A stretch of 64,000 nucleotides of DNA from Candidatus Geothermocultor quzhuomuensis. GTDB taxonomy: Bacteria; Actinomycetota; Aquicultoria; Geothermocultorales; Geothermocultoraceae. This document shows, piece by piece, positions 2,720 through 54,496 of this stretch (position 1 is its first letter; each line of letters starts with the position of its first letter). The stretch spans positions 44,355 through 108,354 of the forward strand of contig JACVJC010000003.1 in NCBI GenBank assembly GCA_015711795.1, written 5' to 3'. The position numbers and the translations under genes are program-made. The notes under the pieces are model-generated. The model saw nothing but the letters and a program-made list of their open reading frames with translations. It made no database searches and was not told where the DNA came from.

Positions 2720-3469
2720 TTAATAGTGAGCTATTATGGTTTTACCTCCATAAACCTGGTCACCAAACTTTACTCTCAACTCAATATCCCTTTTAAAGAT
2801 AACCAAATCAACTTGGGAGCCCCTCTCAATGAAGGAAATCTTCTGCCCCAAACTTAACTCTTCTCCCTCTTTTACAAAGCAACTTATCTTATTAACAAAT
2901 TTATCAGCAATTTCAACTAAGGCAACTGATAAGTCATCCCCCTTTAATATAATTGTGTTTCTCTCATTAGCTAAGTGAAATTTTTTGTCAAATAAATCAA
3001 CAGCTTTTCTTAAAAAGGTAAATTTAAAATACTCCCAAAGGTCAACCATAGGAAAGTTAACTTTCGCTTGATAATAAAAGACTTTCTCAACTCTCCCTTT
3101 AATTGGAGCATAGTTAAAATGAACATCAAGGGGGGACATATAGATCCCAACGAGCCATCCATCCTTGTCTTCTAAAGTTATCTTGGAAAGCTCGCTAATT
3201 GCTATTTCTTCACCCAATTTTTTCGAAATGACTTTGCCTTCTTTAACTTGCCTGATGTAAATAACCTTGCCATCAGCTGGCGAGGCAATAACTCTCCCCT
3301 TTTCATCAGGGGTTCTAATTGGGTCACGATAAAACCAAACCTTTCTTAAATAAAAATAAATACCCCCTATTAAAAAAAGGGCAAGGAATAACATTAAAGC
3401 TAAACTCTTGGGGGAAACTATAGGAAACCAAAAGCTCTCGATAAATCTCTGGCTCTTAAAAATAACCAT
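2720..3469 (-). CDS. psd: phosphatidylserine decarboxylase-like proenzyme (short membrane-anchored form)
   Basis: N-terminal TM helix. YMSPLDVHFNYAP resembles the PSD LSPxDYHR motif, and ERGSQV resembles the autocatalytic G-S-(T) cleavage site near the C-terminus. Start is trimmed to an internal Met to limit overlap with the upstream gene. Confidence 0.5.
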   Translation of the reverse strand: MVIFKSQRFIESFWFPIVSPKSLALMLFLALFLIGGIYFYLRKVWFYRDPIRTPDEKGRVIASPADGKVIYIRQVKEGKVISKKLGEEIAISELSKITLEDKDGWLVGIYMSPLDVHFNYAPIKGRVEKVFYYQAKVNFPMVDLWEYFKFTFLRKAVDLFDKKFHLANERNTIILKGDDLSVALVEIADKFVNKISCFVKEGEELSLGQKISFIERGSQVDLVIFKRDIELRVKFGDQVYGGKTIIAHY

Positions 3470-4451
3470 GCTCCCTCCCAAACTTGTAAGCAACATAAGG
3501 CAATTTAGGAAGGTAATAACCAGCTAGCCCTAGAGCAATCTTAGCCCAGCTTTTCTTAAAATTGGGGATTTTACGAGGACGAGGGGAAAAACTTCCGCTT
3601 CGATAAGCATTATCTAAAGCAGCATAAGTTTTAACTAAGCCATTTTTTTGGTAATAGCGCCAGACCCTGTCAGAAGGTGTCTCAAGGAAAATCTCTTTAG
3701 GTAAATAGTAAAATTTGCACAACTCTTGATAAAGAGGCTCTAACTCCTTACAGTAACCATGAAGAGCCACTTTCTTGCGAAGATAATTATAATTTTTAAG
3801 GTCAAATGGATATTGATAATCTAGTTGAATAATTACCTCGATAAGTTGAAGCAAGACTTTAATCCGCTCCAAGTCCCAAGTGGGGTCAAAGACCCTTAAC
3901 TCAATTGTCCCAAGCCGCTTTGAGATAATAATGTCCTGAAACCTTTCCTCTCTATCATTTTTTAAGGGACCAACAGCAAAAGAATGGAAAATACGATAGG
4001 ATTGACCAAAGTACTTTCCCCCAACAGCTGGTGCGTTGATGGTCAGTAAAGTAAGAAGAGGCAAAAAATAAACTAGATTTCGGTAAACTCTTTCCTTATT
4101 ATCAAGTTGACTAAGATGAATTTGGAAAGCACAAGTATTTGTGGGGCTAGAAAGATTGAGTAAAGACCCAAGGGGAACAATTAAAGCAAGAGAAACTTCA
4201 GTTAAATCTTTCCTTCTCAATTTAAGGTCATTTAAAAGGCTATCAATGTTATGATGAACCCCTGTTGCAATTTCCACCCCTCCCATTAAAGCTTCAAGGA
4301 TATCTTTTCCTCGAGCAAAATTGGAAGCAGAGTGAAAATAGTAAAATTTTGGGTTTTTCCTCAGCAACTGAGCTAAGTAATAAAGAGACTGAAGGGATGG
4401 TTTTTCTGGTTCTACTAAAAATACTTCTTCTTCAATTCCATAAAGGGGCAT
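3456..4451 (-). CDS. carboxylate-amine ligase, glutamate-cysteine ligase family 2 (YbdK-like)
   Basis: N-terminus PLYGIEEEVFLVEP matches the GCS2/YbdK (T)LGVEEEFxLVD signature. The length (331 aa) is typical. Confidence 0.5.
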   Translation of the reverse strand: MPLYGIEEEVFLVEPEKPSLQSLYYLAQLLRKNPKFYYFHSASNFARGKDILEALMGGVEIATGVHHNIDSLLNDLKLRRKDLTEVSLALIVPLGSLLNLSSPTNTCAFQIHLSQLDNKERVYRNLVYFLPLLTLLTINAPAVGGKYFGQSYRIFHSFAVGPLKNDREERFQDIIISKRLGTIELRVFDPTWDLERIKVLLQLIEVIIQLDYQYPFDLKNYNYLRKKVALHGYCKELEPLYQELCKFYYLPKEIFLETPSDRVWRYYQKNGLVKTYAALDNAYRSGSFSPRPRKIPNFKKSWAKIALGLAGYYLPKLPYVAYKFGREHGYF

Positions 4452-4574: not shown

Positions 4575-4934
4575 TTAGGATGTTTTTCTCTTAATCATAA
4601 AGAAATAAAGAATGGGGATAACAATGCCGAAAGGTAGGAATAAGCCAACAATTAACCCAATTAACCAGAGGGTTTTATTCTTTTCTTGACCAGGGGGGAA
4701 TTGTGATTCTTCTCTCTTAACGCAATCAACAATCATCATAATCCAGAAAACAAGCGCAACAATGGCAACAACCACAGCTATCCCCCAGCAACAAAGAAGA
4801 GCAGTCCCAATAGCTTTACCTGCTTGTTCCTCTGCATTTTGAGCAAATGCCATTGCTGGGGAAAGTAAAGATAAAATAATTCCTAAAAGTAGCGATTTTT
4901 TTGTCATCTCTGCCTCCTTTCTTAGAAAAACCAA
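4575..4934 (-). CDS. small membrane protein (signal peptide + 2 TM helices)
   Basis: Hydrophobic segments present. No recognisable domain. Confidence 0.35.
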   Translation of the reverse strand: MVFLRKEAEMTKKSLLLGIILSLLSPAMAFAQNAEEQAGKAIGTALLCCWGIAVVVAIVALVFWIMMIVDCVKREESQFPPGQEKNKTLWLIGLIVGLFLPFGIVIPILYFFMIKRKTS

Positions 4935-4938
4935 ATCA

Positions 4939-5577
4939 TCAAATATACTTTTCAGCTAAATCACCAACGATTGGGAACTTATATACCTCTCCACCATAAG
5001 CCTTAATCATTCCAACAATCCAAAAGATAAATCCAATAGGACCAAGAATCCAACCAACCATGCTGATTAAGGAGGGAATGAAAGGGATTCGAGCTACTCT
5101 CAAGAATATAGAGAAAATTGGAATAACAATTTGTAAAATTTGTAAAGCACCAAAAAAGATTAATGACTGAAAAGCATGAAAGCGAACAAACTTATTTTTA
5201 TGTTCAATTAAGACAAAAATAAGCCCAGTAAGCCAACCTAGAAGATAGCATAATAAGCCAGCAATGTTTGGGCTTAAACCAGTTGAGGATTCCATCTCAG
5301 GTTGTGTTACTTCTCCTTGGGCTGGAGGAGGTTGAGAAGAAACAGAAGGAGTTGGGACAGCCTGAAGGGGAACAGGTTGAGATAGTGCCTCGGGTTGAGT
5401 TGAAGAAGTAACAGGTGTTTGAGCTGTAACTAAGCTTTGAGCACAATTAGGGCAATAACTTTTCTCATCAACAAGGGTCCGACAATCAATGCAAATTTCA
5501 TTACCACATTTTACGCAAATAGCAACACTGTTTTTGTCAGGATGATTTACGCAGGCCAACATCTCACCCCCTTTCAA
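4939..5577 (-). CDS. zinc-ribbon / Pro-rich linker / DUF4870 (YteJ-like) membrane protein fusion
   Basis: N-terminal CxxC...CxxC pairs (CVNHP..CVKCGNEICIDC...CPNC). A Pro/Ser/Thr-rich linker follows. C-terminal AGLLCYLLGWLTGLIFVLIEHKNKFVRFHAFQS is the DUF4870 signature. Confidence 0.6.
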   Translation of the reverse strand: MKGGEMLACVNHPDKNSVAICVKCGNEICIDCRTLVDEKSYCPNCAQSLVTAQTPVTSSTQPEALSQPVPLQAVPTPSVSSQPPPAQGEVTQPEMESSTGLSPNIAGLLCYLLGWLTGLIFVLIEHKNKFVRFHAFQSLIFFGALQILQIVIPIFSIFLRVARIPFIPSLISMVGWILGPIGFIFWIVGMIKAYGGEVYKFPIVGDLAEKYI

Positions 5578-5672
5578 ACGATATAAGAAGAGAGTTCTTT
5601 GAAGCTTAAGGAAATAGAAATAATTTTAAATTTCTTTTATCAAATTTCTCTTAATAAGTAAAGATATATTCT

Positions 5673-6353
5673 TCAATAAATTTCAGTCTTACCAATCACC
5701 TTTCCATTTGAAGCATCAATAGAAATTGACATCTCCCTTTCCAAGCTCGAAAAAACAACTTGCCACGCCCAAGAAACTTTTTTCTGAGGAGTAAGAAAAA
5801 ACCTCAAAGACAAAAATATCCTACCCTGGGAGTCAAAAGCTATAACCTCTCTCCCACCATTTAGCAAGGCAATTTTTAAAGCTTCAGGACTGTCCAACCT
5901 CCAATCTGAGATGCTAGAATGAGAAAAAATATCAAAATATTCTTCCGGCGCTTGGTTACCCTTTTCCTTTCGAGTCACTCTTCTATCTTTTACTTCAATA
6001 TAATAAGTGTTCTCTTCCAATGATTTTTTTGAATAAAAAATAAAAGCCCATCCTTCTCCTGATACAGCTCTTCCCCCTTCGTCAACCCGAACTCCCTTTT
6101 CTCTCAAAGTACTATTTATCTCAACCAACTTAGCATCAGGCTGCCAGCTTTTCGCCTCTTTCAAGGCAATTTCAAAAGCTTCCTTAGCCGTGAGATGAAG
6201 AACTGACTTTCCTAAAGTTTTAGCTTCTTTCTTCTGCCGCAAAAAAAACGAATAAAATAATAAAAAAGAGAGAAGAAAATATAAAAGAAAAAAAATAAAA
6301 AGGAAAAGCTGATATCTTCTTCCTGTAGAAACTCCTAAGCTCATGGCTGCCAT
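5673..6353 (-). CDS. membrane-anchored exported protein, unknown function
   Basis: N-terminal hydrophobic anchor, then a soluble domain. Start placed at the internal Met just after the upstream stop. Confidence 0.35.
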   Translation of the reverse strand: MAAMSLGVSTGRRYQLFLFIFFLLYFLLSFLLFYSFFLRQKKEAKTLGKSVLHLTAKEAFEIALKEAKSWQPDAKLVEINSTLREKGVRVDEGGRAVSGEGWAFIFYSKKSLEENTYYIEVKDRRVTRKEKGNQAPEEYFDIFSHSSISDWRLDSPEALKIALLNGGREVIAFDSQGRIFLSLRFFLTPQKKVSWAWQVVFSSLEREMSISIDASNGKVIGKTEIY

Positions 6354-6357
6354 ACTT

Positions 6358-7074
6358 TTATTTATCCCCTTCATGAGAAATAAATTTGCCGTTTTTAGGA
6401 TTAAAATAAACACTCAAACTTCTCGAGGGATCTTCTTCCAAAAAAAATTTTACCCTCCAAACCCAAAACAAAGATTTATCCTTTTGGAAAGGAATTAATC
6501 CTGCTGTAGCCAATCGATTTAACAACTCACATTTAATTTTAGTTTTTAGCTTTCCTTGAGTAATATTTTCTTGAAAAAAGTCCCTCCCCTTCCTTCTCAG
6601 TCCTTCTTCAATTATCTGAGAAAGGTCTACTTTCCAATCAAGTCTTTCTGATGAAATTTTATCCATAATTTTTTGATATTCTTTCCCTTCCTTAGAAGAG
6701 CTAAATGTATGTTCAGAACCCTTTTCTACTCTCACCTTGCCATTCTTATCAACAAATGCCCAAACTTGAAAGAATTTATTTACTTGAGGAACTTCATAAT
6801 AAAATTGCCAGTCCCCTTGAGGGGTTTTTAAAAAACTTGAAAAATCCTTATTTGCTTGGTAAACGGGAGATTGTAATCGGATAAAAACTCCCCCACCCCA
6901 GCTTTTTCTAACCTTACCATCAGCTGCTTGATAAGCTTGCCGGGCTGTGATAAATTGACTTGACTTAGGCTTAATTCCCCCACATCCAACTAAAGAAAAA
7001 AGCAAAATTAAAAAGAATCCACCGAGAAAGAAAGACACTATCAAATTCTTCTTTTTAGTTAAAGCAACCATCAT
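6358..7074 (-). CDS. lipoprotein, unknown function
   Basis: Signal peptide with LVGCGG lipobox. Confidence 0.45.
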   Translation of the reverse strand: MMVALTKKKNLIVSFFLGGFFLILLFSLVGCGGIKPKSSQFITARQAYQAADGKVRKSWGGGVFIRLQSPVYQANKDFSSFLKTPQGDWQFYYEVPQVNKFFQVWAFVDKNGKVRVEKGSEHTFSSSKEGKEYQKIMDKISSERLDWKVDLSQIIEEGLRRKGRDFFQENITQGKLKTKIKCELLNRLATAGLIPFQKDKSLFWVWRVKFFLEEDPSRSLSVYFNPKNGKFISHEGDK

Positions 7075-7532
7075 GGCTTTAGTGGAGTCGGGATTGTAGG
7101 TACAGTTATTGAAGGAATAGTTAATGAAGGCACCTTTAATTTTCCTTCTTCTTTGGCTTTCTCAATTTCCTCTTGTATTTTTTGACAACCTGGTTGAGCT
7201 TGCTTGTATCCAAGATAGCCTAAACCCCCAATGATTAGGAATGATAAGATAAAAATTAAAAGCAAAATACCACAGCCAATAAGGAGACAAGAAGCTGTGC
7301 TTCTTTTTTGAACCGGTGGATATTGAGGGGGAGCTGAAGACGTAGGAGCTTGAGACGGTGGCGGAGGTGGGCTTGGTGGTTGTGGAGTTGCTTGGGTAGC
7401 AACAATTTTTCCTAAACATTTACTACAATAATATTTTCCTGCAATTTCTTTGCCACAATCTAAACAAAAGGCTGAGCCACACTCTGAGCAAGAACCAACA
7501 GCTTCACTCTCAGGATGATTAATGCACTTCAA
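7071..7532 (-). CDS. zinc-ribbon / proline-rich / single-TM protein
   Basis: CINHPESEAVGSCSECGSAFCLDCG...CSKC is paralogous to the N-terminus of 4939..5577. A PPSPPPPPSQAP linker follows, then a TM helix. Confidence 0.5.
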   Translation of the reverse strand: MKCINHPESEAVGSCSECGSAFCLDCGKEIAGKYYCSKCLGKIVATQATPQPPSPPPPPSQAPTSSAPPQYPPVQKRSTASCLLIGCGILLLIFILSFLIIGGLGYLGYKQAQPGCQKIQEEIEKAKEEGKLKVPSLTIPSITVPTIPTPLKP

Positions 7533-7572
7533 CTTTTTCCTCCTTTCCCCATCTTTTTTAGCAAGGGAATTT

Positions 7573-7929
7573 TTAAACTTTCACCTCAGCCGAATATTTC
7601 TCTGCTAACTCTCCAACAATGGGGAGCTTAAATTTCTCTCCTTGATAAGCTTTAACCAAGCAGTAAATCCATAAGATAAAGCTAACAGGGGCAGCTAAAA
7701 TAGAGATTATCCAACCTACAAGGGGAATAAAGCCGCCGACTAAGGAAATAACAAATAAACCGCCAAATGTTATGATTGATTGCATAGCATGAAATTTGAC
7801 AGTACTATCTTCCTTCTCAATTAGAAAAAAGATTAAACCAGTTAACCAGCCAGCCAAATAACAAAGAAGAGCAGCTATATTAGGAGCTAAGCCTGTAGAG
7901 CTTTTGGGAGACTCAGGAGCTTCAGCCAC
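7573..7929 (-). CDS. DUF4870 (YteJ-like) membrane protein
   Basis: GLAPNIAALLCYLAGWLTGLIFFLIEKEDSTVKFHAMQS matches the DUF4870 signature and is paralogous to 4939..5577 and 54038..54496. Confidence 0.55.
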   Translation of the reverse strand: MAEAPESPKSSTGLAPNIAALLCYLAGWLTGLIFFLIEKEDSTVKFHAMQSIITFGGLFVISLVGGFIPLVGWIISILAAPVSFILWIYCLVKAYQGEKFKLPIVGELAEKYSAEVKV

Positions 7930-8191
7930 TTTGCACCTCCTTTCAAAGAGCTAATTGCTAAATTCTAACATTCTCGAGGTCCATTTTATGGCTCAAAATT
8001 ATCACTTAAATCGTAAGGTTGTCAATAAAATTCTCGAAAAGGAGTAAGAAAGCAAGTAGTAAAAGAAAGGTAGCTTATATTTTAGCGGAGCTCACTCCAT
8101 AAATTTGTTTCCAGAAAAAAGAGAGTAGAAATTCAAGCTAGGCTACATTAGAAATTGCTATGACTTTTCTAAATAATTCTTAAGTTGCCTC

Positions 8192-8449
8192 TTAATAATT
8201 AATAACCCTCTTGCTCATACTAGTTTTAAGATACTTCTCACAAGCTCTTTCAACCTTTTCCAAAAGATAAGTTTCGTAATATAAAAGCTTAAAAGGTCTC
8301 CGATTCTTAGTGAAAGTGGTGCTTTTTCTATTATCCTTCTTAAGCCTGCGCCTTAAATTAACAGTAAAACCAGTATAGAGTTTTTTGCCCTTATTGCTTT
8401 CAAAAAGTAAAGATAATACACATCCAACCTTTAAGATCCATACCCTGAC
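8192..8449 (-). CDS. GIY-YIG nuclease family protein (UPF0213/YhbQ-like); start uncertain
   Basis: KKLYTGFTVNLRRRLKKDN...LLYYETY...EKYLK fits GIY-YIG. The track ORF (to 8533) overlaps tRNA-Arg, so the real start must lie downstream of 8471. No canonical ATG is available, which implies a non-ATG start or an N-terminally truncated gene. Confidence 0.35.
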   Translation of the reverse strand, partial: VRVWILKVGCVLSLLFESNKGKKLYTGFTVNLRRRLKKDNRKSTTFTKNRRPFKLLYYETYLLEKVERACEKYLKTSMSKRVINY

Positions 8450-8470
8450 ATCAATTGGAATAATAGAAGG

Positions 8471-8546
8471 TTGGTGCGCCTGGCGCGACTTGAACGCGCA
8501 ATCTTTGGCTCCGGAGGCCAACGCTCTATCCATTGAGCCACAGGCG
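8471..8546 (-). tRNA. tRNA-Arg (anticodon CCG)
   Basis: Manually folded cloverleaf: acceptor GCGCCTG/CAGGCGC, anticodon stem TTGGC/GCCAA, loop CTCCGGA, T-arm GCGCG-TTCAAGT-CGCGC, encoded CCA. Confidence 0.85.
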
Positions 8547-8644
8547 CAAGTTCAAATCCTAGCTCTCTTTTGACTCTTGGTTATAGTTTAGCAGGTAAAT
8601 AAAGAGAAGCAAATATTGTAAATGAGAGCCCCCTTTGGTATGGC

Positions 8645-9903: not shown

Positions 9904-10266
9904 TTATAATTTTCTCGCTTCTCTTCGACGCTTGAGGTCACTTTGTTTTTCTTCACTTGCACGGAGATACTGCTTTAACATCCTCTCAAAAGAAGAATCT
10001 TCTTTCCCTTTCTCCATTTTTAATTGGGGTTTCTCTTCTAATTGCTTTAGAGATAAATCAATCCGCCCGTCTTTTTTAATACTTACTATTTTTGCTTTTA
10101 CAGATTCACCAACATTCAAATAATCGCTAACATTCTTAACATAGGAATTAGAAATCTCCGAGATGTGAATTAAACCATTTTTTCCCCCTTCGAGCTCGAT
10201 AAATGCCCCAAAATTAGTAATCTTAACAACTTTACCTTCTACTATTTGACCTACCTCAAATGCCAC
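9904..10266 (-). CDS. S1 RNA-binding domain protein (general stress protein 13 / YugI-like)
   Basis: GQIVEGKVVKITNFGAFIEL...GLIHISEIS is an S1 domain, followed by a basic C-terminal tail. Confidence 0.7.
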   Translation of the reverse strand: MAFEVGQIVEGKVVKITNFGAFIELEGGKNGLIHISEISNSYVKNVSDYLNVGESVKAKIVSIKKDGRIDLSLKQLEEKPQLKMEKGKEDSSFERMLKQYLRASEEKQSDLKRRREARKL

Positions 10267-10366
10267 TAAGCTAAAAACTCCTTTCTCCTAATTGATGAGT
10301 GTATTTTACTGATTAAGCCGAAACTATGTCAAGGATAACAGGGGTGATTGTCTTTAAGAAGAAACC

Positions 10367-10786
10367 CTAGAATAAATTTTTAAAAAAATCGACCACCCTT
10401 TGCCAAAATGATTTTTTCTTCACCTCTTTAGGCTTTTCTTCTCCACCCCCTAAAGTTTGATTAGCTTTCTCCGGAGGGACTACAATATAAGCTTTTTCTC
10501 CTGGTTTAATTAAACCTAAGTCTTTTCTTGCTAACTCCTCAATGGTGCTTGTGGTTTTTAAGCGAGCTAGCTCCTCTTCTAAAGCTTTATTTTCTCTTTT
10601 TAACTTGAGTAGCTTCTGTTTCATTTCATTAAGCACTTTCTTCTGCTCTAAGCTTTCTCGATAAGTTGGATAAATAAGAAATAACACTAAGAGAATAGCT
10701 AAAAAAGAAAGGAAGTTAGTAAAATTAAAAAAAGAAAAAAACTTAAACCACTTGGATTTCTCTGGCTTTCTTTTCATTACCTTCAA
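10367..10786 (-). CDS. septum formation initiator family protein (FtsB/DivIC-like)
   Basis: Single TM helix followed by a leucine-zipper coiled coil (LLKLKRENKALEEELARLK). Confidence 0.5.
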   Translation of the reverse strand: MKVMKRKPEKSKWFKFFSFFNFTNFLSFLAILLVLFLIYPTYRESLEQKKVLNEMKQKLLKLKRENKALEEELARLKTTSTIEELARKDLGLIKPGEKAYIVVPPEKANQTLGGGEEKPKEVKKKSFWQRVVDFFKNLF

Positions 10787-10827
10787 AAAGATTATAACAA
10801 ATTAAGAGGGATTGAAAAATAAAAGAA

Positions 10828-12952
<2,125 letters not shown>

Positions 12953-13283
12953 TATTCATCCTCATCTCAATAAGCTGCTTTATTCCACTTTTCTACCAGT
13001 GGAAATTATAACATAAAAAGCTGAAGACTATCGCTTGAAGATAGAATAAATAAAATAAAAGAGAATAGCTAAAAATCAAGTTGCTACAATTAAGTGGCAA
13101 ATGAAAGACAAAAGCTTTAATTAATCAAATAACAAGTTCTTCAAGCAAAACTACCTGACCATCAATATTCCAATATTCTTAAGAATTTGAGAATAAAATT
13201 TGAGCAAGATTAGAAGCTATTCTTAAAAAACTTAGCGGTTTAACTATTTTTAACACCTTCACAGCTTTAAAAAGTGCTAAAAA

Positions 13284-14228
13284 TTAAATGTAAATCTTAA
13301 TTTTGGATTTTTTCCGTTGGTTTTTAAGCCAGTCTTCTAAATATTTCTCCTGGTTCTCTTTTTTAATAGCGTTAACAATTTCTTTTTTTGCTTGTTCAAA
13401 AGATTTTTTCTTAACTTTTTTATCTACTAACTTAATAATGTACCAACCAGCACTAGTTTGAATTGGCTCACTCACTTCGCCTTCCTTAAGCAAAAAAACC
13501 TTATCAGCTAGCTCAGCAGGTAACTCCTCTTTCTTCTTCCAGCCCCAATCTCCACCTCTGTATTTTGTCTCTGAATCAATAGAATATCGGCGAGCTTGGG
13601 AAGAGAAACTTTTCCCTTCCTCTAAATTAGAGTAAACCTTTTTAGCTCCCTCTTCTTCTTTAACCAAAATTTCTTTCAATTTAGCTTCCTGAGAAATAAT
13701 GAATTTATCTTGGTTTTTTCCATAATAATCTCTTGCTTCTCGATCACTTACTTTCACAGAAGAGATAATCTTTTCTACTGCTCTCTCGATTGTAAGATTC
13801 CTTTTGATGTTCTCCTTCAAACTCTTTTCTGTCATTCCCTTACTCTTCAAAGTTTGCTTAAAAGCTTTCTCTCCACTAAACATCTTTCTTATCTTGTTAA
13901 GCTTCTCTTCAACTTCCTTTTCCCCTACCTTGACACCTAACTTAAGAGATTCTCCAATGATAAGTTCATCATTTATCATCGCGGTTAAAATTTTCTCTCG
14001 AAAATCTTTTTCAAGTTCTTTGCCTCTTTCCCCAGCTAAAAGACCCCCGTGACTCGCTTTTAAATCATTAATAATCTTATCGATCTCTTCTTGGTAAATT
14101 TTCTTTCCATTAACTTCAGCAACAACTCTTCTCCCCTCGCAGCTTGGAAGAACAATCACCCCTAAAAAAATAAAAAGACATGTTAAAATAAAAAAATATT
14201 TTTTCATCTCGCTTCTCCTTTCCATCAA
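13284..14228 (-). CDS. peptidyl-prolyl cis-trans isomerase, SurA/PrsA family (parvulin domain)
   Basis: Signal peptide, a SurA-N-like helical region and a C-terminal parvulin motif (VSEPIQTSAGWYIIKL). Confidence 0.65.
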   Translation of the reverse strand: MMERRSEMKKYFFILTCLFIFLGVIVLPSCEGRRVVAEVNGKKIYQEEIDKIINDLKASHGGLLAGERGKELEKDFREKILTAMINDELIIGESLKLGVKVGEKEVEEKLNKIRKMFSGEKAFKQTLKSKGMTEKSLKENIKRNLTIERAVEKIISSVKVSDREARDYYGKNQDKFIISQEAKLKEILVKEEEGAKKVYSNLEEGKSFSSQARRYSIDSETKYRGGDWGWKKKEELPAELADKVFLLKEGEVSEPIQTSAGWYIIKLVDKKVKKKSFEQAKKEIVNAIKKENQEKYLEDWLKNQRKKSKIKIYI

Positions 14229-17200
14229 TTTTGAAGTAAGCGTATTATATCACTTAAGAAAAGAGGCAAAAAAGATAAAATTTCTTTTTTATTAATACTA
14301 ATTGACCCTACTCCATAAACTAATTTAAACATAGGATATTTCTTCTTGAGTTCCTGGTAGACTTGGGGGATGCTCTTTCCCTTTAAGAGGAGTTGACCTT
14401 TACGGTAAGAAATCTCACTTAATTGAGCCTCTCGGGCTTGGGATTTTATTTCACATATTTTAATTAAATTTTCAGTTTCACAAGGGATTTCCCCAAACCT
14501 ATCCTCAAGTTCTTCTCTTAATTTTCTTGTATCTTTTAAATTTCTTAAAGAAGCCATCTTTTTGTAAATTTCAAGCCTCAAACTACCCTCAATGTAATCT
14601 TCAGAAATAAATGCACTTACCGGTAAATCAATCTTCACCTCTACCTCTTCTTTAACTAGCTTTCCCTTAATCTCCTCAACTGCTTTCTTAAGAAGGTCCA
14701 TGTAAAGCTCAAAGCCAAGTAAAGAGATATGGCCATGCTGTTCAGGACCGAGCAAGTTACCAGCTCCCCTAATCTCTAAATCTTTTAAAGCAATTTTGGC
14801 GCCCGAACCTAATTGGGTAAAATCAGATAAGGTTTTTAACCTTTCTAACGCTGCTTCTGTTAAGACGCTTTCAGGTTGGTAAAAAAAGTAAGCATAAGCT
14901 CTCTTGTCTGAGCGACCAACTCGCCCTCTCAGCTGATAACCCTGAGCTAACCCTAGTTTATCAGCTTCATCTACGATTAAAGTATTAACAGTTGGAATAT
15001 CAATGCCTGATTCAATAATGGTAGTGCAAACTAAAACATTATATTTCATTTTTAAAAAGTCAACCATCACTTTCTCTAGCTCTTCCTCATCCATTTGACC
15101 ATGAGCTACCGCTAATTTAACTTGAGGAACTAACTTCCTTACCTGCTCAGCTACCTGATAAACATCCTCAACTCGATTGTGAACAAAATAAACTTGACCT
15201 CCTCTTTCAATCTCCCTCAAAATTGCTCTTTTGACTAAACTCTTGTCGTATTCACCGACATAAGTTGAGATGGGGAACCTGTCTTCAGGAGGGGTTTCAA
15301 TAACACTCAAATCCCTAATTCCGCTTAAAGACATTTGCAAAGTTCGAGGAATAGGAGTTGCGGAAAGAGATAAAACATCGACTGTTTTTTTTATTGCTTT
15401 TAAGCGCTCCTTTTGGGAAACACCAAAGCGATGCTCCTCATCGATGATGAGAAGACCTAAATCTTTTGGTTTAAGGTCAGGTGAGAGAAGGCGATGAGTC
15501 CCAATTAAAATATCAATTTTGCCTTGGCTAAAATCTTCAATGATTTTCGCTTGCTCCTTTTGAGTCCGAAACCTAGAGAGAAATTCTATGAAGATCGGGA
15601 ATGGGGCTAACCTTTCTTTAAAGGTATTAAAGTGTTGCTGAACTAAAATAGTGGTGGGAGCTAAAAGTATAACTTGCTTTCCATCCATAACACACTTAAA
15701 AGCCGCCCTAATAGCTACCTCAGTTTTTCCATACCCAACATCACCTAATATTAGCCTTTCCATCGGCTTGGGCTTCTCCATATCTTTTTTAACCTCTTCA
15801 ATTGTCTTCAATTGGTCAATAGTCTCTTGATAAGGGAAGGATTCCTCAAGTTCAGCTTGCCAAGGAGTATCAGGAGAAAAGGCATGCCCTTGAAGACATT
15901 CCCTTTCTGCATAAAGCTTAATGAGGTCAATGGCGAGTTTTTTAATTCCCTTCTTTGCCCGAGCTTTGACTCTTGCCCATTCACTTGAGCTAAGACGATT
16001 TACTTTAGGTAGCTTGTTGTCCCCCCCAATATATTTAGAGACTCGGTCTAACTGGTAAGTAGGAACCTTTAAAAGTCCATCTAAGTATTCAAGAACAAGA
16101 TACTCTTTAGTAGCTCCATCAACCACTATTTTTTCTATTCCCTTGTAAATGGCTACTCCATGTCGTGAATGAACTACATAATCACCTGGTTCTAAATCAG
16201 GTGGAGAAAGAGCTGAAATCGATTGAGTAGAAATTCTTTCGCGTCGAGTTAAAGAAGGGAAAATTTCTTCCTGAGGAATCAAAGCTAAATTAATTTCAGG
16301 ACAAATAAATCCTTGCTTAATTTCACCCTCAAGTAAAATTAATCTGCCTAACAAGTCTTTTCCTCTCCCCTCTTCTAAAGAAAAAATAGGATTTAAACCC
16401 CAATCCCAGAGTATTTCTTTCATTCTTTGAAAGAAACCCTTTTCAAAAACGAGGAGCGTAAGGAATTTTTTTTCTTCTAACTCCCTAAGTAATCTCTCGA
16501 GTCTTTCAATTTTTCCCATCAAAGGGGGAAGATTATCCGACCTTATTTCAACAAGATCCTTCTTGCCCTTTTCATGAAAAGAAAGAAAATTCAGCCTTAA
16601 GAAAGGGGAAAAAGAAAGATCTTTTAAGGAAAATAAATAAGGTTGAGGAGGAAAGGGAATTTTTTTCTCAAAAGTTAAGTAATCTAAGGTTTCTTGATAA
16701 AGGTTAACTATCTTTTCCTCTTCCTTTTCAATTTTTTTAGGTTCATTTAAGACGAAAATGCTTTTTGGAGAGAGGTAATCAAGAAAACAATCAAGCTTAG
16801 GGTAAAGAAAGGGAAGATAAATTTCAGAACCTTCAAAGTACTGAAGTTCTTTTAATTTAGCTAAATCCTCTTGGGGAAAGAGGGAAGAGTCCAAATTCTT
16901 CTCAAGCCTCATCACATCTTCTTTTCTCAAAACGATTTCCCGACAAGGAAAAAGATAAAACTCATTAAGAGTAGAAAATGAGCGTTGATTTGCAACCATA
17001 AATTGGCGAATCGACTCAATCTCATCTCCAAAAAATTCAATCCTTAAAGGGTGAGATTGGTTTGGTGGAAAAATATCGATAATTCCTCCTCTTAAACTAA
17101 AATCTCCCCGCTCTTCCACCATCTTTCTTCTTTCATAACCAAAATTTTTTAAGCAATTGATTAAATTAGAGTGGTCAAATATTTTCCCAACTTGAAAATG

Positions 17201-17653
17201 AACAAAGCGAGGTGAATAATAAGATAAAGGAGTAAAGCCTGGCAAAAAACCTTTAAGTGAAGAAACAACAGTCATTTTTTTTCCATCTTCAAGAAAGTTT
17301 AAAATCTCTAACCGTTCTGAGACAACCTTTTTACTAGGAGCCATCCTTTCTAGTAACAACTCTTCCCGCTCCGGTAAAAACTTAACATTTTCCAAGAAAA
17401 AAGAGAGGTCTTGATAGTAAATCTTCTGCTCCTGAAGAGTGTCAGTTAAAATAAAAAAAGTCCTTTTAAAATAGTTCTCTAAATATGCAATTAAAAAGGG
17501 CCTTAAAGAAGAGGCAGCTAAAATAAAAACTTCTCCTTGATTTAGCCTTTTCTTAATCAATTTAAATTGGTTGCTTTCTTCAATTATTGGTTTTAAAAAC
17601 TTAAATTTTTTATTAATCATTTCCAACACCAAATGGGTCTGGTTAAAATTCAC
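14225..17653 (-). CDS. mfd: transcription-repair coupling factor Mfd
   Basis: 1142 aa. UvrB-like N-terminus, CarD/RNAP-interacting domain, DEAD/DEAH helicase motifs (GDVGYGKTEVA, DEEHRFG) and a TRCF C-terminal domain. Confidence 0.9.
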   Translation of the reverse strand: MNFNQTHLVLEMINKKFKFLKPIIEESNQFKLIKKRLNQGEVFILAASSLRPFLIAYLENYFKRTFFILTDTLQEQKIYYQDLSFFLENVKFLPEREELLLERMAPSKKVVSERLEILNFLEDGKKMTVVSSLKGFLPGFTPLSYYSPRFVHFQVGKIFDHSNLINCLKNFGYERRKMVEERGDFSLRGGIIDIFPPNQSHPLRIEFFGDEIESIRQFMVANQRSFSTLNEFYLFPCREIVLRKEDVMRLEKNLDSSLFPQEDLAKLKELQYFEGSEIYLPFLYPKLDCFLDYLSPKSIFVLNEPKKIEKEEEKIVNLYQETLDYLTFEKKIPFPPQPYLFSLKDLSFSPFLRLNFLSFHEKGKKDLVEIRSDNLPPLMGKIERLERLLRELEEKKFLTLLVFEKGFFQRMKEILWDWGLNPIFSLEEGRGKDLLGRLILLEGEIKQGFICPEINLALIPQEEIFPSLTRRERISTQSISALSPPDLEPGDYVVHSRHGVAIYKGIEKIVVDGATKEYLVLEYLDGLLKVPTYQLDRVSKYIGGDNKLPKVNRLSSSEWARVKARAKKGIKKLAIDLIKLYAERECLQGHAFSPDTPWQAELEESFPYQETIDQLKTIEEVKKDMEKPKPMERLILGDVGYGKTEVAIRAAFKCVMDGKQVILLAPTTILVQQHFNTFKERLAPFPIFIEFLSRFRTQKEQAKIIEDFSQGKIDILIGTHRLLSPDLKPKDLGLLIIDEEHRFGVSQKERLKAIKKTVDVLSLSATPIPRTLQMSLSGIRDLSVIETPPEDRFPISTYVGEYDKSLVKRAILREIERGGQVYFVHNRVEDVYQVAEQVRKLVPQVKLAVAHGQMDEEELEKVMVDFLKMKYNVLVCTTIIESGIDIPTVNTLIVDEADKLGLAQGYQLRGRVGRSDKRAYAYFFYQPESVLTEAALERLKTLSDFTQLGSGAKIALKDLEIRGAGNLLGPEQHGHISLLGFELYMDLLKKAVEEIKGKLVKEEVEVKIDLPVSAFISEDYIEGSLRLEIYKKMASLRNLKDTRKLREELEDRFGEIPCETENLIKICEIKSQAREAQLSEISYRKGQLLLKGKSIPQVYQELKKKYPMFKLVYGVGSISINKKEILSFLPLFLSDIIRLLQN

Positions 17654-17919
17654 CAGACCCCCAAAAGTTCACAAATCTAAAATTCCAAATTTTACATTCT
17701 AACCCATAAAACCAGACTGAAGCTAAAATTTCTTTTAAGAATATTTAATTTTTAGATGATTTTTTAGTCTTAAGCCTATTTTTAATGTACTTTATTCTTT
17801 TTCCCTTTGCTACTATATGTTGGTTCCTCATCTTTTTCCTTAGTCATTTACCCCGTCTTTGACGAGATGGTTCTTGATATTGCCTACCTTGTAAGAAATC
17901 TTTAATTTCCTTTCGGGGT

Positions 17920-18495
17920 TTAGAGCTTAGGATTTGAGCTAAAAGATTGGCTTATAGCTTTTTCAAAGCCATCTCCTACAATCAGCTTTATCACCTCAAC
18001 CGCTTGATTAAGAATAAATTCAATTTTAGCCCATTCACGACGAGTAAATGGTGAAAGAACAAAATTAGCTGGGCTTTGTTTGCCCCGAGGGCGACCAATA
18101 CCTATCCGAAGACGACAAAAATTTTCCGTGCCTAACTTCTCAATTATCGAATTTAGCCCATTATGACCACCACTTCCTCCCTTTTTTCTTAGCCTAATTT
18201 TCCCTAACGGTAAATCCAAATCGTCACAAATGACTAAAAGATTCTCCTCAGAAAGTTGAAAATGTTTAAGAATATTTCTTACTGCCCTCCCACTAGCATT
18301 AACATAAGTAAGAGGCTTAACTAAAACTATACCTTGCCCATTGAACTCTCCCGCCCCCCAAAGAGACTCAAAAGAATTAATTGAAAGAGGAATATTCAAC
18401 TCTTCTTCCAATCTATCAATTATCATATACCCCAAGTTATGACGGGTATTTTCATATCTTTTTTCGGGGTTTCCCAAACCAACGATAACTAACAT
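17920..18495 (-). CDS. pth: peptidyl-tRNA hydrolase
   Basis: MLVIVGLGNPEKRYENTRHNLGYM is a canonical Pth N-terminus. Confidence 0.9.
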   Translation of the reverse strand: MLVIVGLGNPEKRYENTRHNLGYMIIDRLEEELNIPLSINSFESLWGAGEFNGQGIVLVKPLTYVNASGRAVRNILKHFQLSEENLLVICDDLDLPLGKIRLRKKGGSGGHNGLNSIIEKLGTENFCRLRIGIGRPRGKQSPANFVLSPFTRREWAKIEFILNQAVEVIKLIVGDGFEKAISQSFSSNPKL

Positions 18496-18666
18496 TTTGC
18501 CTCAAAATCTCAATAAAAGGATAAAAGTTAAGAGATTAAAATAATTTTAGCAAATTTCCAAAGCCTGGTAAGGTAAACTATTAGTTTACAAATGTTGAAT
18601 TGGTGACCAGGAACTTAAAAGTTTGTCTCTGCCCAAACCCACAACTTTAATAGTTAGCTAAATTTT

Positions 18667-19338
18667 TTATTCTTTCGTCTCTTCTTCAGTTGGTTTTTCT
18701 TCTGTCTTAGCTTCAGTAGCAGCTACTTCCTCTTCTGGAGCTATTTCTTCCACCTCTTCGACTTTTTCCTCATAAACAGTGGGCGGAACAATTGTGAGAA
18801 CAATCTCGCTGGGGTCTGAAAGAGGGATAACTCCTTCAGGGAAGGGTAAATCTTCAACTCGCACCGCGTCACCAATCTCAAGGGAACTAATATCAACTTC
18901 TAGATGTTCAGGGAGATCTTTAGGTAAAGCTTCAACCTCAACTTCCCAAATGCCATGCTGGAGAACACCCCCGACCTCAATTCCTTTGCATTCCTCTTCA
19001 TTCTTAATTACAATTGGAACAAAAGCCGAGATTTTTTTATCCATTTGAATCTTTTGAAAATCAATATGAAGATAACCATCCCTAAGAGGATTTCTTTTTG
19101 CCTCCTTTATTATGGCAGTATGTGTTTCTCCATCATTCAAATTCAACTTAACAATGAAACTCGTTCCTTCGTGAGAATGAACAAGAGAATAAAAATCTTT
19201 TGCCTTAACCGATAATGGTAATGGCTTTATCTTATGACCATAAAGAATTGCTGGAATTTTCCCTTCACGCCTGAGTTTGCGAGCTATTCCCTTGCCCACT
19301 TTTTCTCTTTTGTCAGCCGTTAATTCCGATATTTTCAC
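18667..19338 (-). CDS. rplY: 50S ribosomal protein L25 / general stress protein Ctc, with acidic C-terminal extension
   Basis: REKVGKGIARKLRREGKIPAILYG is the L25/Ctc signature. Conserved position between prs and pth. Confidence 0.85.
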   Translation of the reverse strand: MKISELTADKREKVGKGIARKLRREGKIPAILYGHKIKPLPLSVKAKDFYSLVHSHEGTSFIVKLNLNDGETHTAIIKEAKRNPLRDGYLHIDFQKIQMDKKISAFVPIVIKNEEECKGIEVGGVLQHGIWEVEVEALPKDLPEHLEVDISSLEIGDAVRVEDLPFPEGVIPLSDPSEIVLTIVPPTVYEEKVEEVEEIAPEEEVAATEAKTEEKPTEEETKE

Positions 19339-19429
19339 CTTTCTTTAACCTCCACTATTCAGAATTGTTATATTAACAACTAAAAAAATTATTTTCAACC
19401 CTCCCAATCTCAAGAGAACCTTAAAAAAA

Positions 19430-20368
19430 TTAAGCATGCTCTAGCCCTTTAAAAAGCCGACTTACTGATTCGTCTTTATGAATGTAAAAAATGGCTCGAC
19501 CAAAAAGAGAAGCCACTGAAAGAACTTTTATCTTTTCGCTTTCCTTCCCTTCATCAATAGGAATGGTATTGGTAACAACCACTTCTTTAATAAGAGAATT
19601 TTGAAGTCTTTTAAGTGCAGGGGGAGAAAAAATGGGATGAGTAGCGCAAACATAAACCTCCTTAGCCCCTTCCCTTAATAAAGCCTCAGCACCATTAACT
19701 ACTGTCCCACCAGTATCAATCATATCATCAATGATTAAAGTTATTTTCCCCCTAACTTCACCCACAACATGGGTTACTTCAGCAACATTATGTTTAGGGC
19801 GACTTTTATGCAAAATAGCCAAACCTGCTTCTAAAAAGTCAGCACATTTTTTAGCTATTTTGACCCGACCAACATCAGGTGAAACAACGACTAATTCTTT
19901 AAATTTTTTCCCTTTTATGTAATTAACTAATAAAGGAACAGCGGTCAAATGGTCAACTGGAATATTAAAAAATCCTTGAATCTGGCCGGCATGAAGATCC
20001 ATTGTAATTAAGCGATTAATACCAGCTGTAGCTAACAAATCAGCAATTAATTTAGCACTAATTGGTTCCCTTGACTTTGCTTTTTTATCTTGGCGAGAAT
20101 AACCAAAGTAAGGAATAACTGCTGTGATGCGCTCAGCTGAAGCCCTCTTAAGCGCATCAACCATAATTAACAACTCCATAATATTTTGATTGACAGGATT
20201 ACTGATAGTTTGAATAACAAAAACATCAGCACCTCGAACACTTTCTAAAAAGCGAACATAAATTTCACCATTATCAAAATAAGATATGCTTACCTTTCCC
20301 AGTTTTACCTTCAAATAAGAGGCAATTTCCTTGCCTAGCTTTGGATGGGAATTACCAGAAAAAATCAT
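19430..20368 (-). CDS. prs: ribose-phosphate pyrophosphokinase (PRPP synthetase)
   Basis: MIFSGNSHPKLGKEIA...PRPP-binding motifs. Start moved to the internal Met because the track ORF start overlaps the glmU 3' end. Confidence 0.9.
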   Translation of the reverse strand: MIFSGNSHPKLGKEIASYLKVKLGKVSISYFDNGEIYVRFLESVRGADVFVIQTISNPVNQNIMELLIMVDALKRASAERITAVIPYFGYSRQDKKAKSREPISAKLIADLLATAGINRLITMDLHAGQIQGFFNIPVDHLTAVPLLVNYIKGKKFKELVVVSPDVGRVKIAKKCADFLEAGLAILHKSRPKHNVAEVTHVVGEVRGKITLIIDDMIDTGGTVVNGAEALLREGAKEVYVCATHPIFSPPALKRLQNSLIKEVVVTNTIPIDEGKESEKIKVLSVASLFGRAIFYIHKDESVSRLFKGLEHA

Positions 20369-20393
20369 AATCTTTCCCCGCCAAACAGGAGAA

Positions 20394-22612: not shown

Positions 22613-22634
22613 TTCTTTCCTCCTGTGAATTGAT

Positions 22635-23775: not shown

Positions 23776-23796
23776 TTAAAAATTTAATTTGGTTAA

Positions 23797-27976: not shown

Positions 27977-28016
27977 AAATAGCTTATTGGCTTCGGGGCG
28001 TCAAGAAAAATTTTTT

Positions 28017-54037: not shown

Positions 54038-54496
54038 ATGGAGGTGGAAAAATTGGACGAGCCCCGAGAACCTTCTGAAGGTAAGGAAGGAAAGGAACTA
54101 GAAGAAGGGGAGGCAAGGGTATATGCGAGGGAAGCATCAACACTCGAACCACATATGGCAGCTGCTTTGTGCTACTCTTTAGGTTGGTTAAGTGCTTTAA
54201 TTATCTTCTTTGTTGAAAAAAGAAGCCGCTATGTGAAATTTCATGCAATCCAAGCTCTTCTCTGGAGTGTAGGAGCTTTAATTGTCTGGTTAATCTTAGG
54301 AATTTTGTGGGTTGTCCTTGTTCCCCTTGGAGTCGCCAATTTTTTCTTTAAGATAATTGGAATGATTATAATGGTAACTTTTTTTGGTTGGGGCATAGGC
54401 AATGTTTATATGTGGTTAATTTTAATGTTCAAGGCTTATAAGGGAGAATGGCATAAGATTCCTATTTTAGGTGACAAGGCAGAAGAAATTGCTTAG
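54038..54496 (+). CDS. DUF4870 (YteJ-like) membrane protein with acidic N-terminal extension
   Basis: HMAAALCYSLGWLSALIIFFVEKRSRYVKFHAIQAL is the DUF4870 signature. Third paralogue in the window. Confidence 0.55.
   Translation: MEVEKLDEPREPSEGKEGKELEEGEARVYAREASTLEPHMAAALCYSLGWLSALIIFFVEKRSRYVKFHAIQALLWSVGALIVWLILGILWVVLVPLGVANFFFKIIGMIIMVTFFGWGIGNVYMWLILMFKAYKGEWHKIPILGDKAEEIA

Follow-up and report, generated by a model that had tools for sequence, protein, structure and literature searches.

Six adjacent, co-directional genes on the minus strand at positions 4575-7929 of the window (the whole stretch of DNA analysed, 64,000 nucleotides from Candidatus Geothermocultor quzhuomuensis) form a cluster that is real and lineage-specific, is built of known uncharacterised families, and is probably co-transcribed. 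Three domain types, a DUF4870 (HOTT) membrane domain, a zinc finger and an exported PepSY-like domain, are present in two copies each across these six genes within 3.3 kb. Our preferred reading, held tentatively and with rather less than even confidence, is a lineage-specific operon read from one promoter, in which a HOTT scaffold would be encoded with zinc-finger and PepSY-like partners and which would have been built by accretion. The genes in transcription order, followed by the promoter-like site and a further DUF4870 gene, are:

7573..7929, minus strand: gene 1, stand-alone DUF4870/HOTT membrane protein, 118 aa (PF09685, 36.3 bits)
7071..7532, minus strand: gene 2, B-box-like zinc finger, Pro-rich linker, one TM helix and tail, 153 aa (match to gene 5 N-terminus, hydropathy)
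6358..7074, minus strand: gene 3, lipoprotein with tandem PepSY-like ectodomain, 238 aa (lipobox L-V-G-C at Cys31)
5673..6353, minus strand: gene 4, N-terminal TM anchor and tandem PepSY-like ectodomain, 226 aa (family profile, AlphaFold model)
4939..5562, minus strand: gene 5, B-box-like zinc finger, Pro-rich linker and DUF4870/HOTT, 207 aa (PF09685, 30.3 bits)
4575..4907, minus strand: gene 6, small membrane protein, 110 aa (DUF2516-like, sub-threshold; hydropathy)
7998..8025, minus strand: promoter-like site TTGACA-16 nt-GATAAT, 11/12 matches, about 70 nt upstream of gene 1
54038..54496, plus strand: third DUF4870/HOTT paralogue, 152 aa (PF09685, 34.1 bits)

An earlier note on this DNA had described the six genes as tightly packed, and the ORFs bear this out with short gaps or overlaps. 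In transcription order (DUF4870, ZnF-TM, PepSY-lipoprotein, PepSY-TM, ZnF-DUF4870, small TM protein) the intergenic distances are 40, -4, 4, 110 and 31 nt, the second being an ATGA overlap of the gene 3 start with the gene 2 stop, and the third becoming a 17-nt overlap if the deposited start of gene 4, 7 codons earlier at 6374, is used. Read from the sequence, these overlapping stop and start codons suggest translational coupling. The promoter-like site is the sole strong match on the minus strand in the region, and no terminator-like site was found on that strand from 8025 to 4575; against a single-promoter operon, there could be a second promoter in the 110-nt gap that precedes gene 5. The GTG start of gene 1, whose ORF is identical in the NCBI deposit, is preceded by a GGAGGT ribosome-binding site; gene 5, first read as 4939-5577, has its likely start at ATG 5562 in agreement with the deposit, with the ribosome-binding site GGGGGTGAG; and AAGGAGG lies ahead of the likely start of gene 6, ATG 4907.

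Pfam scans covering the regions beside the cluster and almost every window ORF of 110 aa or more returned housekeeping and redox genes only, and no kinase, sigma factor or regulator was detected in or beside the cluster when it was scanned with its flanks. The genes flanking the cluster are ppx, tRNA genes and psd, and the gene order around the cluster is of a housekeeping, Bacillus-like type, which the cluster interrupts.

Immediately upstream of the cluster are tRNA-Leu and tRNA-Arg, separated from it by a GIY-YIG-domain ORF, and this position would suit a small integrated mobile element or a defence island that had entered at the tRNA-Arg gene and carried the cluster as cargo. We find this scarcely credible, however, given that no integrase or recombinase and no direct repeat of the tRNA 3' end flanking the cluster were found, that the G+C content of the cluster (0.34-0.40) is similar to its surroundings, and that the Pfam and NCBIfam results for the six proteins show no defence function.

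The three DUF4870 assignments made in the earlier note were upheld by HMM search, all scores lying above the PF09685 gathering cut-off of 25 bits. Hydropathy gives each protein three hydrophobic segments with a charged loop of 9-21 residues between them (EKEDSTVKFHAMQS in gene 1), and the loop motif F-H-A-x-Q is retained together with invariant Y, W, P and G residues; the published HOTT layout consists of a first re-entrant-like hydrophobic helix, a charged loop and two more membrane helices (PMC11628618). The 54-kb paralogue stands by itself outside the operon, with an ABC permease gene on one side and ApbE on the other; it shares 33-35% identity with genes 1 and 5, and the acidic stretch for which it had been called acidic-tailed is an N-terminal extension of 40 aa.

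The C-terminal half of gene 5 is 51% identical to gene 1 (E 1e-37), and the two DUF4870 copies compared as such are 53% identical. Genes 1 and 5 are each 57-65% identical to proteins of other phyla, the homologues of gene 1 from Dehalococcoidia, Omnitrophica and archaeal MAGs reaching 60-63%, and in each other's ranking of 116 relatives the two come 54th and 36th. In the tree the sister of gene 5 is P0002, its closest full-length relative and the only one sharing its architecture (45% identity, 97% coverage), whose neighbouring genes are unrelated to the cluster. The two halves of the cluster are mirrored on one strand (D–Z–P / P'–Z'D'–S), and this order, together with the distant mutual ranks of the DUF4870 copies, contradicts the tandem duplication that had been proposed.

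An N-terminal zinc finger is common to genes 2 and 5 (36% identity over 44 aa, E 8e-11), and that of gene 2 also matches P0002 (E 2.1e-12). The eight-ligand pattern C-x2-H-x8-C-x2-C-x4-C-x2-C-x9-C-x2-C/H is kept in all three, P0002 being the one protein outside this genome in which this version was found. The zinc-ribbon call made previously does not stand as a family assignment: the domain, with its eight Cys/His ligands, reaches no Pfam cut-off in either gene, with Zn_Ribbon_1 (PF13240) giving 13.8 bits against 25 for gene 5 and no match for gene 2, and zf-B_box (PF00643) giving 15.4 and 17.2 bits, the latter for gene 2, under its cut-off of 24.1. A zinc-finger profile found weak LIM, DksA and RING matches in the PDB. 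The domain looks B-box-like, and since the fingers of genes 2 and 5 come without a signal peptide they lie in the cytoplasm.

In gene 2 the finger occupies residues 3-39, the TM helix about 83-108, and a charged/Pro-rich tail the last 45-52 aa; no homologue other than itself was found among 5.8 billion proteins searched. The claim that the fusion in gene 5 equals the two separate genes is right in that both halves match, but gene 2 has its own TM helix and tail, and it stands after the DUF4870 gene 1, which reverses the fusion order and rules out a fusion simply cut in two. The broader association of the two domains fared better. Pfam zinc-ribbon and DUF4870 fusions make up 38 of the 120 best homologues, and a separate zinc-ribbon membrane gene lies directly upstream of DUF4870 at two of 80 other loci (L012, L072), so that as far as sequence comparison goes the zinc finger/DUF4870 link in general holds.

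Genes 3 and 4 are divergent paralogues, gene 3 lipid-anchored and gene 4 TM-anchored, which answers a question the earlier note had raised about these soluble partners. They match each other in BLASTP (E 5e-4), and a gene 4 profile of 62 homologues aligns with gene 3 over 163 columns (hhalign probability 96.4%, E 1e-9; hmmsearch E 4.4e-9). The AlphaFold models of both have 4exr as best PDB match, that of gene 3 leaning to the gene-4 fold because it was built on the gene-4 family alignment. Gene 3, a sequence orphan among 5.8 billion proteins, has a K-rich N-terminus, a hydrophobic core (11-29) and L-V-G-C31, which, read by eye, agrees with the lipobox [LVI][ASTVI][GAS]C. Two to four stretches of P0126, P0127, P0136, P0142, P0149 and P0176 match the gene 4 query, the sequence of P0127 comprising two full PepSY-like units. 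The remaining protein, gene 6, has a signal-peptide-like N-terminus and two TM helices, and scores 27.1 bits for DUF2516 against a cut-off of 30.6.

Inhibition or chaperoning of peptidases is the presumed role of PepSY propeptide domains, and the gene-4 family profile matches PDB chain 9vy3 ('Propeptide, PepSY and peptidase M4') with E 0.0013. The cluster could accordingly serve envelope protease control, genes 3 and 4 inhibiting or chaperoning an extracellular peptidase while the membrane proteins position them. We consider this improbable: the PepSY Pfam model (PF03413) gives 12 bits against a cut-off of 24, the best structural match is to a protein without known function, neither the cluster nor its immediate surroundings contain a peptidase gene (the only protease found in the window being cytoplasmic Lon, 40 kb away), and members of the gene-4 family elsewhere adjoin TadE-like genes, not peptidases.

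A survey of gene neighbourhoods does not support the conserved module that had been envisaged. Homologues of gene 2, 3, 4 or 6 were present at none of 80 DUF4870 loci of other species, the present lineage having no sampled close relatives, and no family recurred more than four times among 150 immediate neighbours of DUF4870 loci. A second DUF4870 copy lay within 5 kb at two of the 80 loci; the genes elsewhere are almost always lone and encode 107-125 aa. The neighbours of the gene-4 family elsewhere (L002, L085, L086, L003) are mutually homologous TadE-domain and BNR-like proteins, which have no homologues in the window; no DUF4870 gene was present at these gene-4 family loci, and no DUF4870/PepSY-like fusion was seen. 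Since the six-gene grouping was met nowhere else, it should be regarded as a local curiosity, and a new system is not demonstrated.

This rarity gives some weight to the possibility that the cluster is an incidental pile-up of promiscuous small membrane-protein genes in a variable spot after two tRNA genes, co-transcribed and not cooperating. We see this as possible, if clearly short of probable. The lack of partner co-conservation would agree with it, as would the solitary habit of DUF4870 genes elsewhere, the two orphans among the six genes (genes 2 and 3), the interruption of a housekeeping order beside tRNA-Leu, tRNA-Arg and the GIY-YIG ORF, and the mirrored order with DUF4870 copies that are old paralogues. 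On the other hand, three domain types each occurring exactly twice in 3.3 kb are unlikely by chance, zinc finger/DUF4870 fusions occur in many lineages, the stop/start overlaps point to coupled translation, and a composition anomaly, an integrase and an att-like repeat are all absent at the cluster.

The model put forward in the earlier note, a duplicated three-gene module in which a zinc ribbon senses and gates or anchors a DUF4870 channel of YteJ type, with SppA swapped for exported partners, appears to us quite improbable. The domain pairs are indeed present, many proteins join a zinc finger to DUF4870, and the distant relative Tic20 is a component of a translocation channel (PMC11628618). 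However, the two units are neither collinear nor recent duplicates, co-conservation is lacking at the 80 loci, and we found no evidence for either sensing or a channel: the sequences carry no sign of sensing, and no kinase, sigma factor or regulator accompanies them. YteJ/SppI, moreover, has been placed in the RDD superfamily (PMC7568657), and none of the three DUF4870 proteins matches RDD (PF06271) at E<=1. DUF4870 is thus not the YteJ family, and the contrast drawn from the absence of SppA has no bearing; correcting this mix-up matters, as follow-up would otherwise be misdirected.

Under the preferred reading of an operon built by accretion, six small cytoplasmic-membrane and envelope proteins would be produced, namely three pairs of paralogous domains and an extra small membrane protein. 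The two HOTT proteins could form an oligomeric scaffold inside the membrane, which is plausible because single polypeptides with two HOTT domains exist (P0003 and P0004, with two DUF4870 domains apiece). The zinc fingers may act as cytoplasmic protein-protein interaction modules that link gene 2 to this scaffold in trans, as the gene 5 fusion would in cis. By analogy with the recruitment or insertion of helix-anchored clients by MamF-like proteins, HOTT would recruit or stabilise the helix-anchored products of genes 2 and 4, and perhaps 6, while genes 3 and 4 would pair on the external side of the membrane, a pairing made plausible by homologues in which two or four units are fused. Should the first HOTT helix be re-entrant, as the published layout has it, hardly anything of HOTT would lie outside the cell, and contact with the ectodomains would run solely through the gene 4 TM helix. 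The cluster would have arisen by accretion of already divergent paralogues rather than by recent tandem duplication, because genes 1 and 5 are only 53% identical and closer to proteins of other phyla, and gene 5 groups with P0002. A bolder version, which we hold to be unlikely, is a HOTT (Tic20-like) device encoded with its own clients, in which the hetero-oligomer would recruit helix-anchored proteins or insert them into the cytoplasmic membrane, notably gene 2, which has no signal peptide, with the paired zinc fingers as a docking handle.

The family concerned is very large, spans bacteria and archaea, and has been studied only in its magnetosome members; the role of plastid Tic20, a HOTT relative, is still debated. 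Most HOTT genes are solitary, so that gene context offers no functional hints, and an operon with two HOTT genes beside possible partners could be an experimental starting point, its value limited by an arrangement seen in one genome, two orphan partners and inferred interactions. Should a HOTT device with clients prove true, it would be the first operon-level clue to the role of HOTT outside magnetotactic bacteria and would explain the frequent fusion of zinc fingers to HOTT.

Compared with known systems, the nearest is the HOTT family itself (PF09685, DUF4870 renamed MamF_MmsF), which includes magnetosome MamF/MmsF/MmxF, is distantly related to plastid Tic20, and outside magnetotactic bacteria has been described as completely uncharacterised (PMC11628618). 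Like its members, genes 1, 5 and the 54-kb gene have a first helix broken by G-W, a loop E-K-x-x-x-F-V-R-F-H-A-x-Q-S and two further TM helices. MamF-like proteins bind particular integral-helix proteins and are required for their membrane localisation (PMC11628618); unlike at loci of that subfamily, no magnetosome genes were found in the window (Pfam scans of nearly all ORFs of at least 110 aa), and unlike at other HOTT loci two copies stand here with zinc-finger and PepSY-like partners, a combination found at none of the 80.

The likeness to SppA-SppI, a membrane protease with its inhibitor in B. subtilis, is a general analogy only, of a small multi-pass protein forming an oligomer with a membrane-anchored extracytoplasmic operon partner; no S49 peptidase (sppA) was found in the cluster, its flanks or the scanned window ORFs of at least 110 aa. 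Zinc-ribbon/DUF4870 fusions (PF13240 or PF12773 with PF09685) are widespread in bacteria and archaea, and gene 5 follows their order of N-terminal Cys-rich zinc domain, Pro-rich linker and DUF4870. The common fusions, however, carry a four-Cys Zn_Ribbon_1 (C-x2-C...C-x2-C), whereas genes 5, 2 and P0002 have the eight-ligand finger, which scores higher against B-box than zinc-ribbon models, both below cut-off.

For the exported proteins, 4exr is the tandem PepSY-like lipoprotein CD1622 of Clostridioides difficile, with a sequence identity of 10-15%, and more distant relations are YpeB, YpmB, the PepSY domains of FoxB and the propeptides of M4/M36 proteases. The wider gene-4 family consists of TM-anchored proteins of about 200 aa with a pair of PepSY-like repeats, met on metagenomic contigs. 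In the family alignment gene 4 matches them end to end at 20-26% identity, the closest reaching 31-32% within the stretch that matches, and it keeps the family's invariant Trp residues as well as its W-x-x-D-S and G-G motifs.

The six cluster genes (g1 to g6) are tightly packed, and a seventh gene (g7) lies apart from them:

7929-7573, minus strand: g1, DUF4870 protein (118-aa ORF)
7532-7071, minus strand: g2, predicted zinc-finger and transmembrane protein (153-aa ORF)
7074-6358, minus strand: g3, predicted lipoprotein (238-aa ORF)
6353-5673, minus strand: g4, membrane-anchored PepSY-like protein (226-aa ORF; the deposited call begins at 6374)
5562-4939, minus strand: g5, predicted zinc finger-DUF4870 fusion (207 aa; start as in the deposited protein P0001)
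4907-4575, minus strand: g6, small transmembrane protein (110-aa ORF)
54038-54496, plus strand: g7, separate DUF4870 gene, its DUF4870 match above the Pfam cut-off

Neighboring genes are separated by 40 nt (g1/g2), 4 nt (g3/g4; a 17-nt overlap with the deposited start of g4), 110 nt (g4/g5) and 31 nt (g5/g6), g2 and g3 overlap by 4 nt at an ATGA, and g1, g2, g5 and g6 are each preceded by a Shine-Dalgarno-like sequence. A single strong promoter-like site (TTGACA-16-GATAAT, 11/12 matches) precedes g1 by about 70 nt, and no terminator-like site was found on the cluster strand within the cluster. An RNA element in the 110-nt gap before g5 was considered and rejected, the only Rfam matches in the window being three tRNAs. 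We suggest that g1 to g6 are probably co-transcribed and may together encode a small assembly associated with the membrane. NCBI records contain identical sequences for all but two of the seven ORFs; one of these two, the fusion g5, is deposited with the shorter ATG start. The six deposited proteins are all singleton clusters.

The DUF4870 assignments of g1, g5 and g7 were borne out, with PF09685 scores of 36.3, 30.3 and 34.1 bits, respectively, against a Pfam cut-off of 25 bits. g1 shares 51% identity with the DUF4870 half of g5 (E 1e-37) and 33% with g7. DUF4870 corresponds to the HOTT family (“homologs of Tic twenty”), distant kin of plastid Tic20, to which the magnetosome proteins MamF, MmsF and MmxF belong (PMC11628618); PF09685 is named “MamF_MmsF” in a newer Pfam release, and alignment and hydropathy show the HOTT layout and invariant residues to be retained in the DUF4870 proteins of the window. 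The earlier note had equated DUF4870 with the YteJ family, and much of the appeal of the cluster came from that analogy, which is wrong: SppI/YteJ is a member of the RDD superfamily (PMC7568657), and none of g1, g5 and g7 has an RDD match in Pfam at E<=1, so that the comparison with a missing SppA falls as well. Pfam annotation, which covered nearly all ORFs of at least 110 aa in the window, revealed no S49 peptidase, RDD protein, sigma factor or magnetosome gene. Two g5 homologs, P0003 (216 aa) and P0004 (215 aa), each align as two complete HOTT domains in one polypeptide, which suggests that HOTT domains act in pairs or larger oligomers. A DUF4870/PepSY fusion was also sought as a Rosetta stone and rejected, since long DUF4870 proteins bear extra transmembrane regions and not PepSY-like domains.

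The N-termini of g5 and g2 share 36% identity over 44 residues (E 8e-11), and an eight-ligand pattern, C-x2-H-x8-C-x2-C-x4-C-x2-C-x9-C-x2-C/H, is kept in g2, g5 and the g5 homolog P0002. A zinc domain common to g2 and g5 stands, but its assignment as a zinc ribbon is not supported; every Pfam cut-off is missed (Zn_Ribbon_1 13.8 vs. 25; B-box 15-17 bits vs. 24.1), and we refer to it as a putative B-box-like zinc finger. Sequence searches of the PDB gave only weak, mixed LIM, RING and DksA-type matches, and an identification by this route was rejected. The finger should be cytoplasmic, because no signal peptide precedes it. g2 continues with a single strongly hydrophobic helix (about residues 83-108) and a tail of 45-52 residues by hydropathy, and a word-indexed search of 5.8 billion proteins returned no homolog besides itself; its reading as an anti-sigma factor was rejected, with no sigma factor gene nearby and no zf-HC2 match. 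The proposed link between zinc finger and DUF4870 recurs more widely: in 38 of the 120 best g5 matches, zinc-ribbon domains recognized by Pfam are joined to DUF4870, and because such fusions are numerous the two domains are likely to belong together. P0002 is the sole other protein found with the g5 architecture.

Among the remaining products, a lipobox (L-V-G-C31) is present in g3. Hydropathy places an anchor helix at the N-terminus of g4 and shows a signal-like segment and two helices in g6, which also has a sub-threshold match to DUF2516 (27.1 vs. 30.6). The possibility that the soluble partners g3 and g4 are themselves paralogs was marginal by BLASTP (E 5e-4) and is confirmed by profile methods: a 62-member g4-family profile aligns with g3 over both halves (hhalign 96.4%, E 1e-9) and matches it within the window by hmmsearch (E 4.4e-9). 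An exhaustive HMMER search returned 84 relatives of g4, most of them about 200 aa long and laid out like g4, and some relatives consist of two to four fused units; g3 has no homolog besides itself among 5.8 billion proteins in a word-indexed search. Good AlphaFold models (pLDDT 82.8 for g4; 81.2 for g3, which was built on the g4-family alignment and is thus biased towards the g4-family fold) predict for both a membrane anchor and then two units, each of a helix and four strands.

Elsewhere, the g4 family occurs in a different setting. Of five individually inspected contigs, four share neighbors, TadE-domain proteins and a BNR-like protein of about 435 aa, that are homologous between contigs, and homologs of these neighbors are absent from the window:

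L002: 945-6756
L085: 2-3189
L086: 3-1495
L003: 2-1149

The fifth (L004) encodes a double-length member and no DUF4870. The TadE, BNR-like and g4-family genes may make up an undescribed set associated with pili or the cell surface.

In the direction of transcription the domains run DUF4870, zinc finger, PepSY-like, PepSY-like, zinc finger-DUF4870, small membrane protein, with the halves mirrored on one strand, an order that follows from neither tandem nor inverted duplication. Across 117 aligned DUF4870 domains, g1 shares 60-63% identity with proteins of Dehalococcoidia, Omnitrophica and archaeal MAGs and 53% with g5; g1 and g5 stand 54th and 36th in each other's lists of relatives, P0002 is grouped with g5, and the node at which g1 and g5 join takes in 90 of the 117 sequences. 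The “tandem duplication” is thus not one: judged from these comparisons, g1 and g5 are old paralogs that came to share one cluster. Nor are g1 and g2 the fusion g5 in two pieces, as had been proposed, since g2 is placed after g1 and possesses a separate anchor and tail.

A functional module had been proposed, with lack of co-conservation named beforehand as an argument against it, and no conserved module was recovered. A GTDB scan with the DUF4870 alignment (one genome per species) gave 586 confirmed matches, and in the best 80 of these loci no homolog of g2, g3, g4 or g6 was found. DUF4870 is there mostly a lone ORF of 107-125 aa; a second DUF4870 is present in two of these 80 loci, a CxxC...CxxC domain is fused to it in five, and a separate zinc-ribbon membrane gene lies directly upstream in two (L012, L072). 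Among 150 immediate neighbors from 75 DUF4870 loci no Pfam family exceeds four occurrences (GreA and DUF4870, four each), and neither S49 peptidase nor PepSY domain is among the 25 most recurrent neighbor families. P0002 is flanked by purine-synthesis, DUF72, LigD_N and CutA1 genes. However, the source lineage is essentially unsampled and has no sampled close relatives: all nine housekeeping proteins found in a collection of about 15 billion sequences are singletons at 90% identity, each of them on the same 108,758-bp NCBI contig, and a metagenome scan with the flanking Ppx gave only relatives of 31-35% identity and no usable synteny. Example regions of the window are:

10828-12105
30811-32925
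45293-47239

“Unique to this genome” should therefore be read as not found in other lineages, and it is in this sense that the grouping is without support outside the source genome. The main rival explanation is that the grouping is incidental; the lone DUF4870 loci speak for it and the overlapping stop and start codons against it, and we rate it as slightly less probable than cooperation of the products. The cluster itself is real and no chance pattern, and that its six products truly cooperate is a reading we hold tentatively.

By Pfam content the window holds pth, L25/Ctc, prs, glmU, tRNA-Gln, RidA, an ispE-like kinase, veg, ksgA, a G5/DUF348/3D protein, tatD, mfd, a PrsA/SurA-like isomerase, mazG and enolase, continuing with divIC and an S1-domain protein and then ppx, tRNA-Leu, tRNA-Arg, a GIY-YIG ORF and the cluster, which starts past the tRNA genes, where the conserved order breaks. 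The order S1 protein, divIC, enolase, mazG, PrsA-like, mfd, pth, ctc, prs, glmU, tRNA-Gln, ridA, ispE-like, veg, ksgA, G5/3D protein, tatD (9904-28778, minus strand) is one we take to be that of the origin-proximal yab region (yabD...yabR) of B. subtilis. By this analogy the host is probably a Bacillota-like monoderm, and partners described as “periplasmic” would better be placed on the outer face of the cytoplasmic membrane. A mobile element at the tRNA was rejected, with no att-like repeat, integrase or G+C shift. The GIY-YIG ORF (8192-8533, minus strand; 34 bits vs. 22.6, residues 44-105), between the tRNA genes and the cluster, has a listed 5' part that overlaps tRNA-Arg (8472-8547) and no ordinary start codon evident just upstream of its domain; the gene may be short or decayed. 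NapC/NirT-type and multi-heme c-type cytochromes adjoin ribonucleotide reductase (29185-30728, 33368-34066, minus strand), notable in a Bacillota-like genome and hinting at extracellular or anaerobic respiration. The gene adjoining g7 is ApbE, and immediately beyond it two DUF2229 “CoA enzyme activase” proteins and then a BadF/BcrA-type ATPase (55612-58711, plus strand) resemble activators of benzoyl-CoA reductase/2-hydroxyacyl-CoA dehydratase. No Pfam match (1e-5 or 1e-7) was obtained for ORFs of 331, 256, 120 and 648 aa, the first lying directly downstream of the cluster and overlapping the psd gene by 41 nt; their regions are:

3456-4451, minus strand
27206-27976, minus strand
44934-47239, minus strand

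From the domain identities, paralogies and gene packing observed, we infer how the products could interact. A HOTT scaffold would be a hetero-oligomer of g1 and g5, for which the two-domain polypeptides P0003 and P0004 offer a precedent; the zinc fingers of g2 and g5 would serve as cytoplasmic interaction modules tying g2 to this scaffold; and g3 and g4 would pair outside the membrane, in line with the relatives that have two to four fused units. Should the first HOTT helix be re-entrant, both ends of the domain would be cytoplasmic and contact with g3/g4 could be made only through the g4 anchor helix, which weakens the link between HOTT and the exported proteins. The significance of the cluster would grow if relatives within the lineage carry it, or if multimer modeling shows a HOTT/zinc-finger complex.

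What is new is the arrangement, together with the rare B-box-like fusion variant; the families are already known, though uncharacterized, and the HOTT family beyond its magnetosome members has been described as completely uncharacterized (PMC11628618). MamF-like proteins bind particular integral-membrane-helix proteins and are required for their membrane localization (PMC11628618); by analogy, the HOTT scaffold could recruit or stabilize the helix-anchored clients g2, g4 and perhaps g6.
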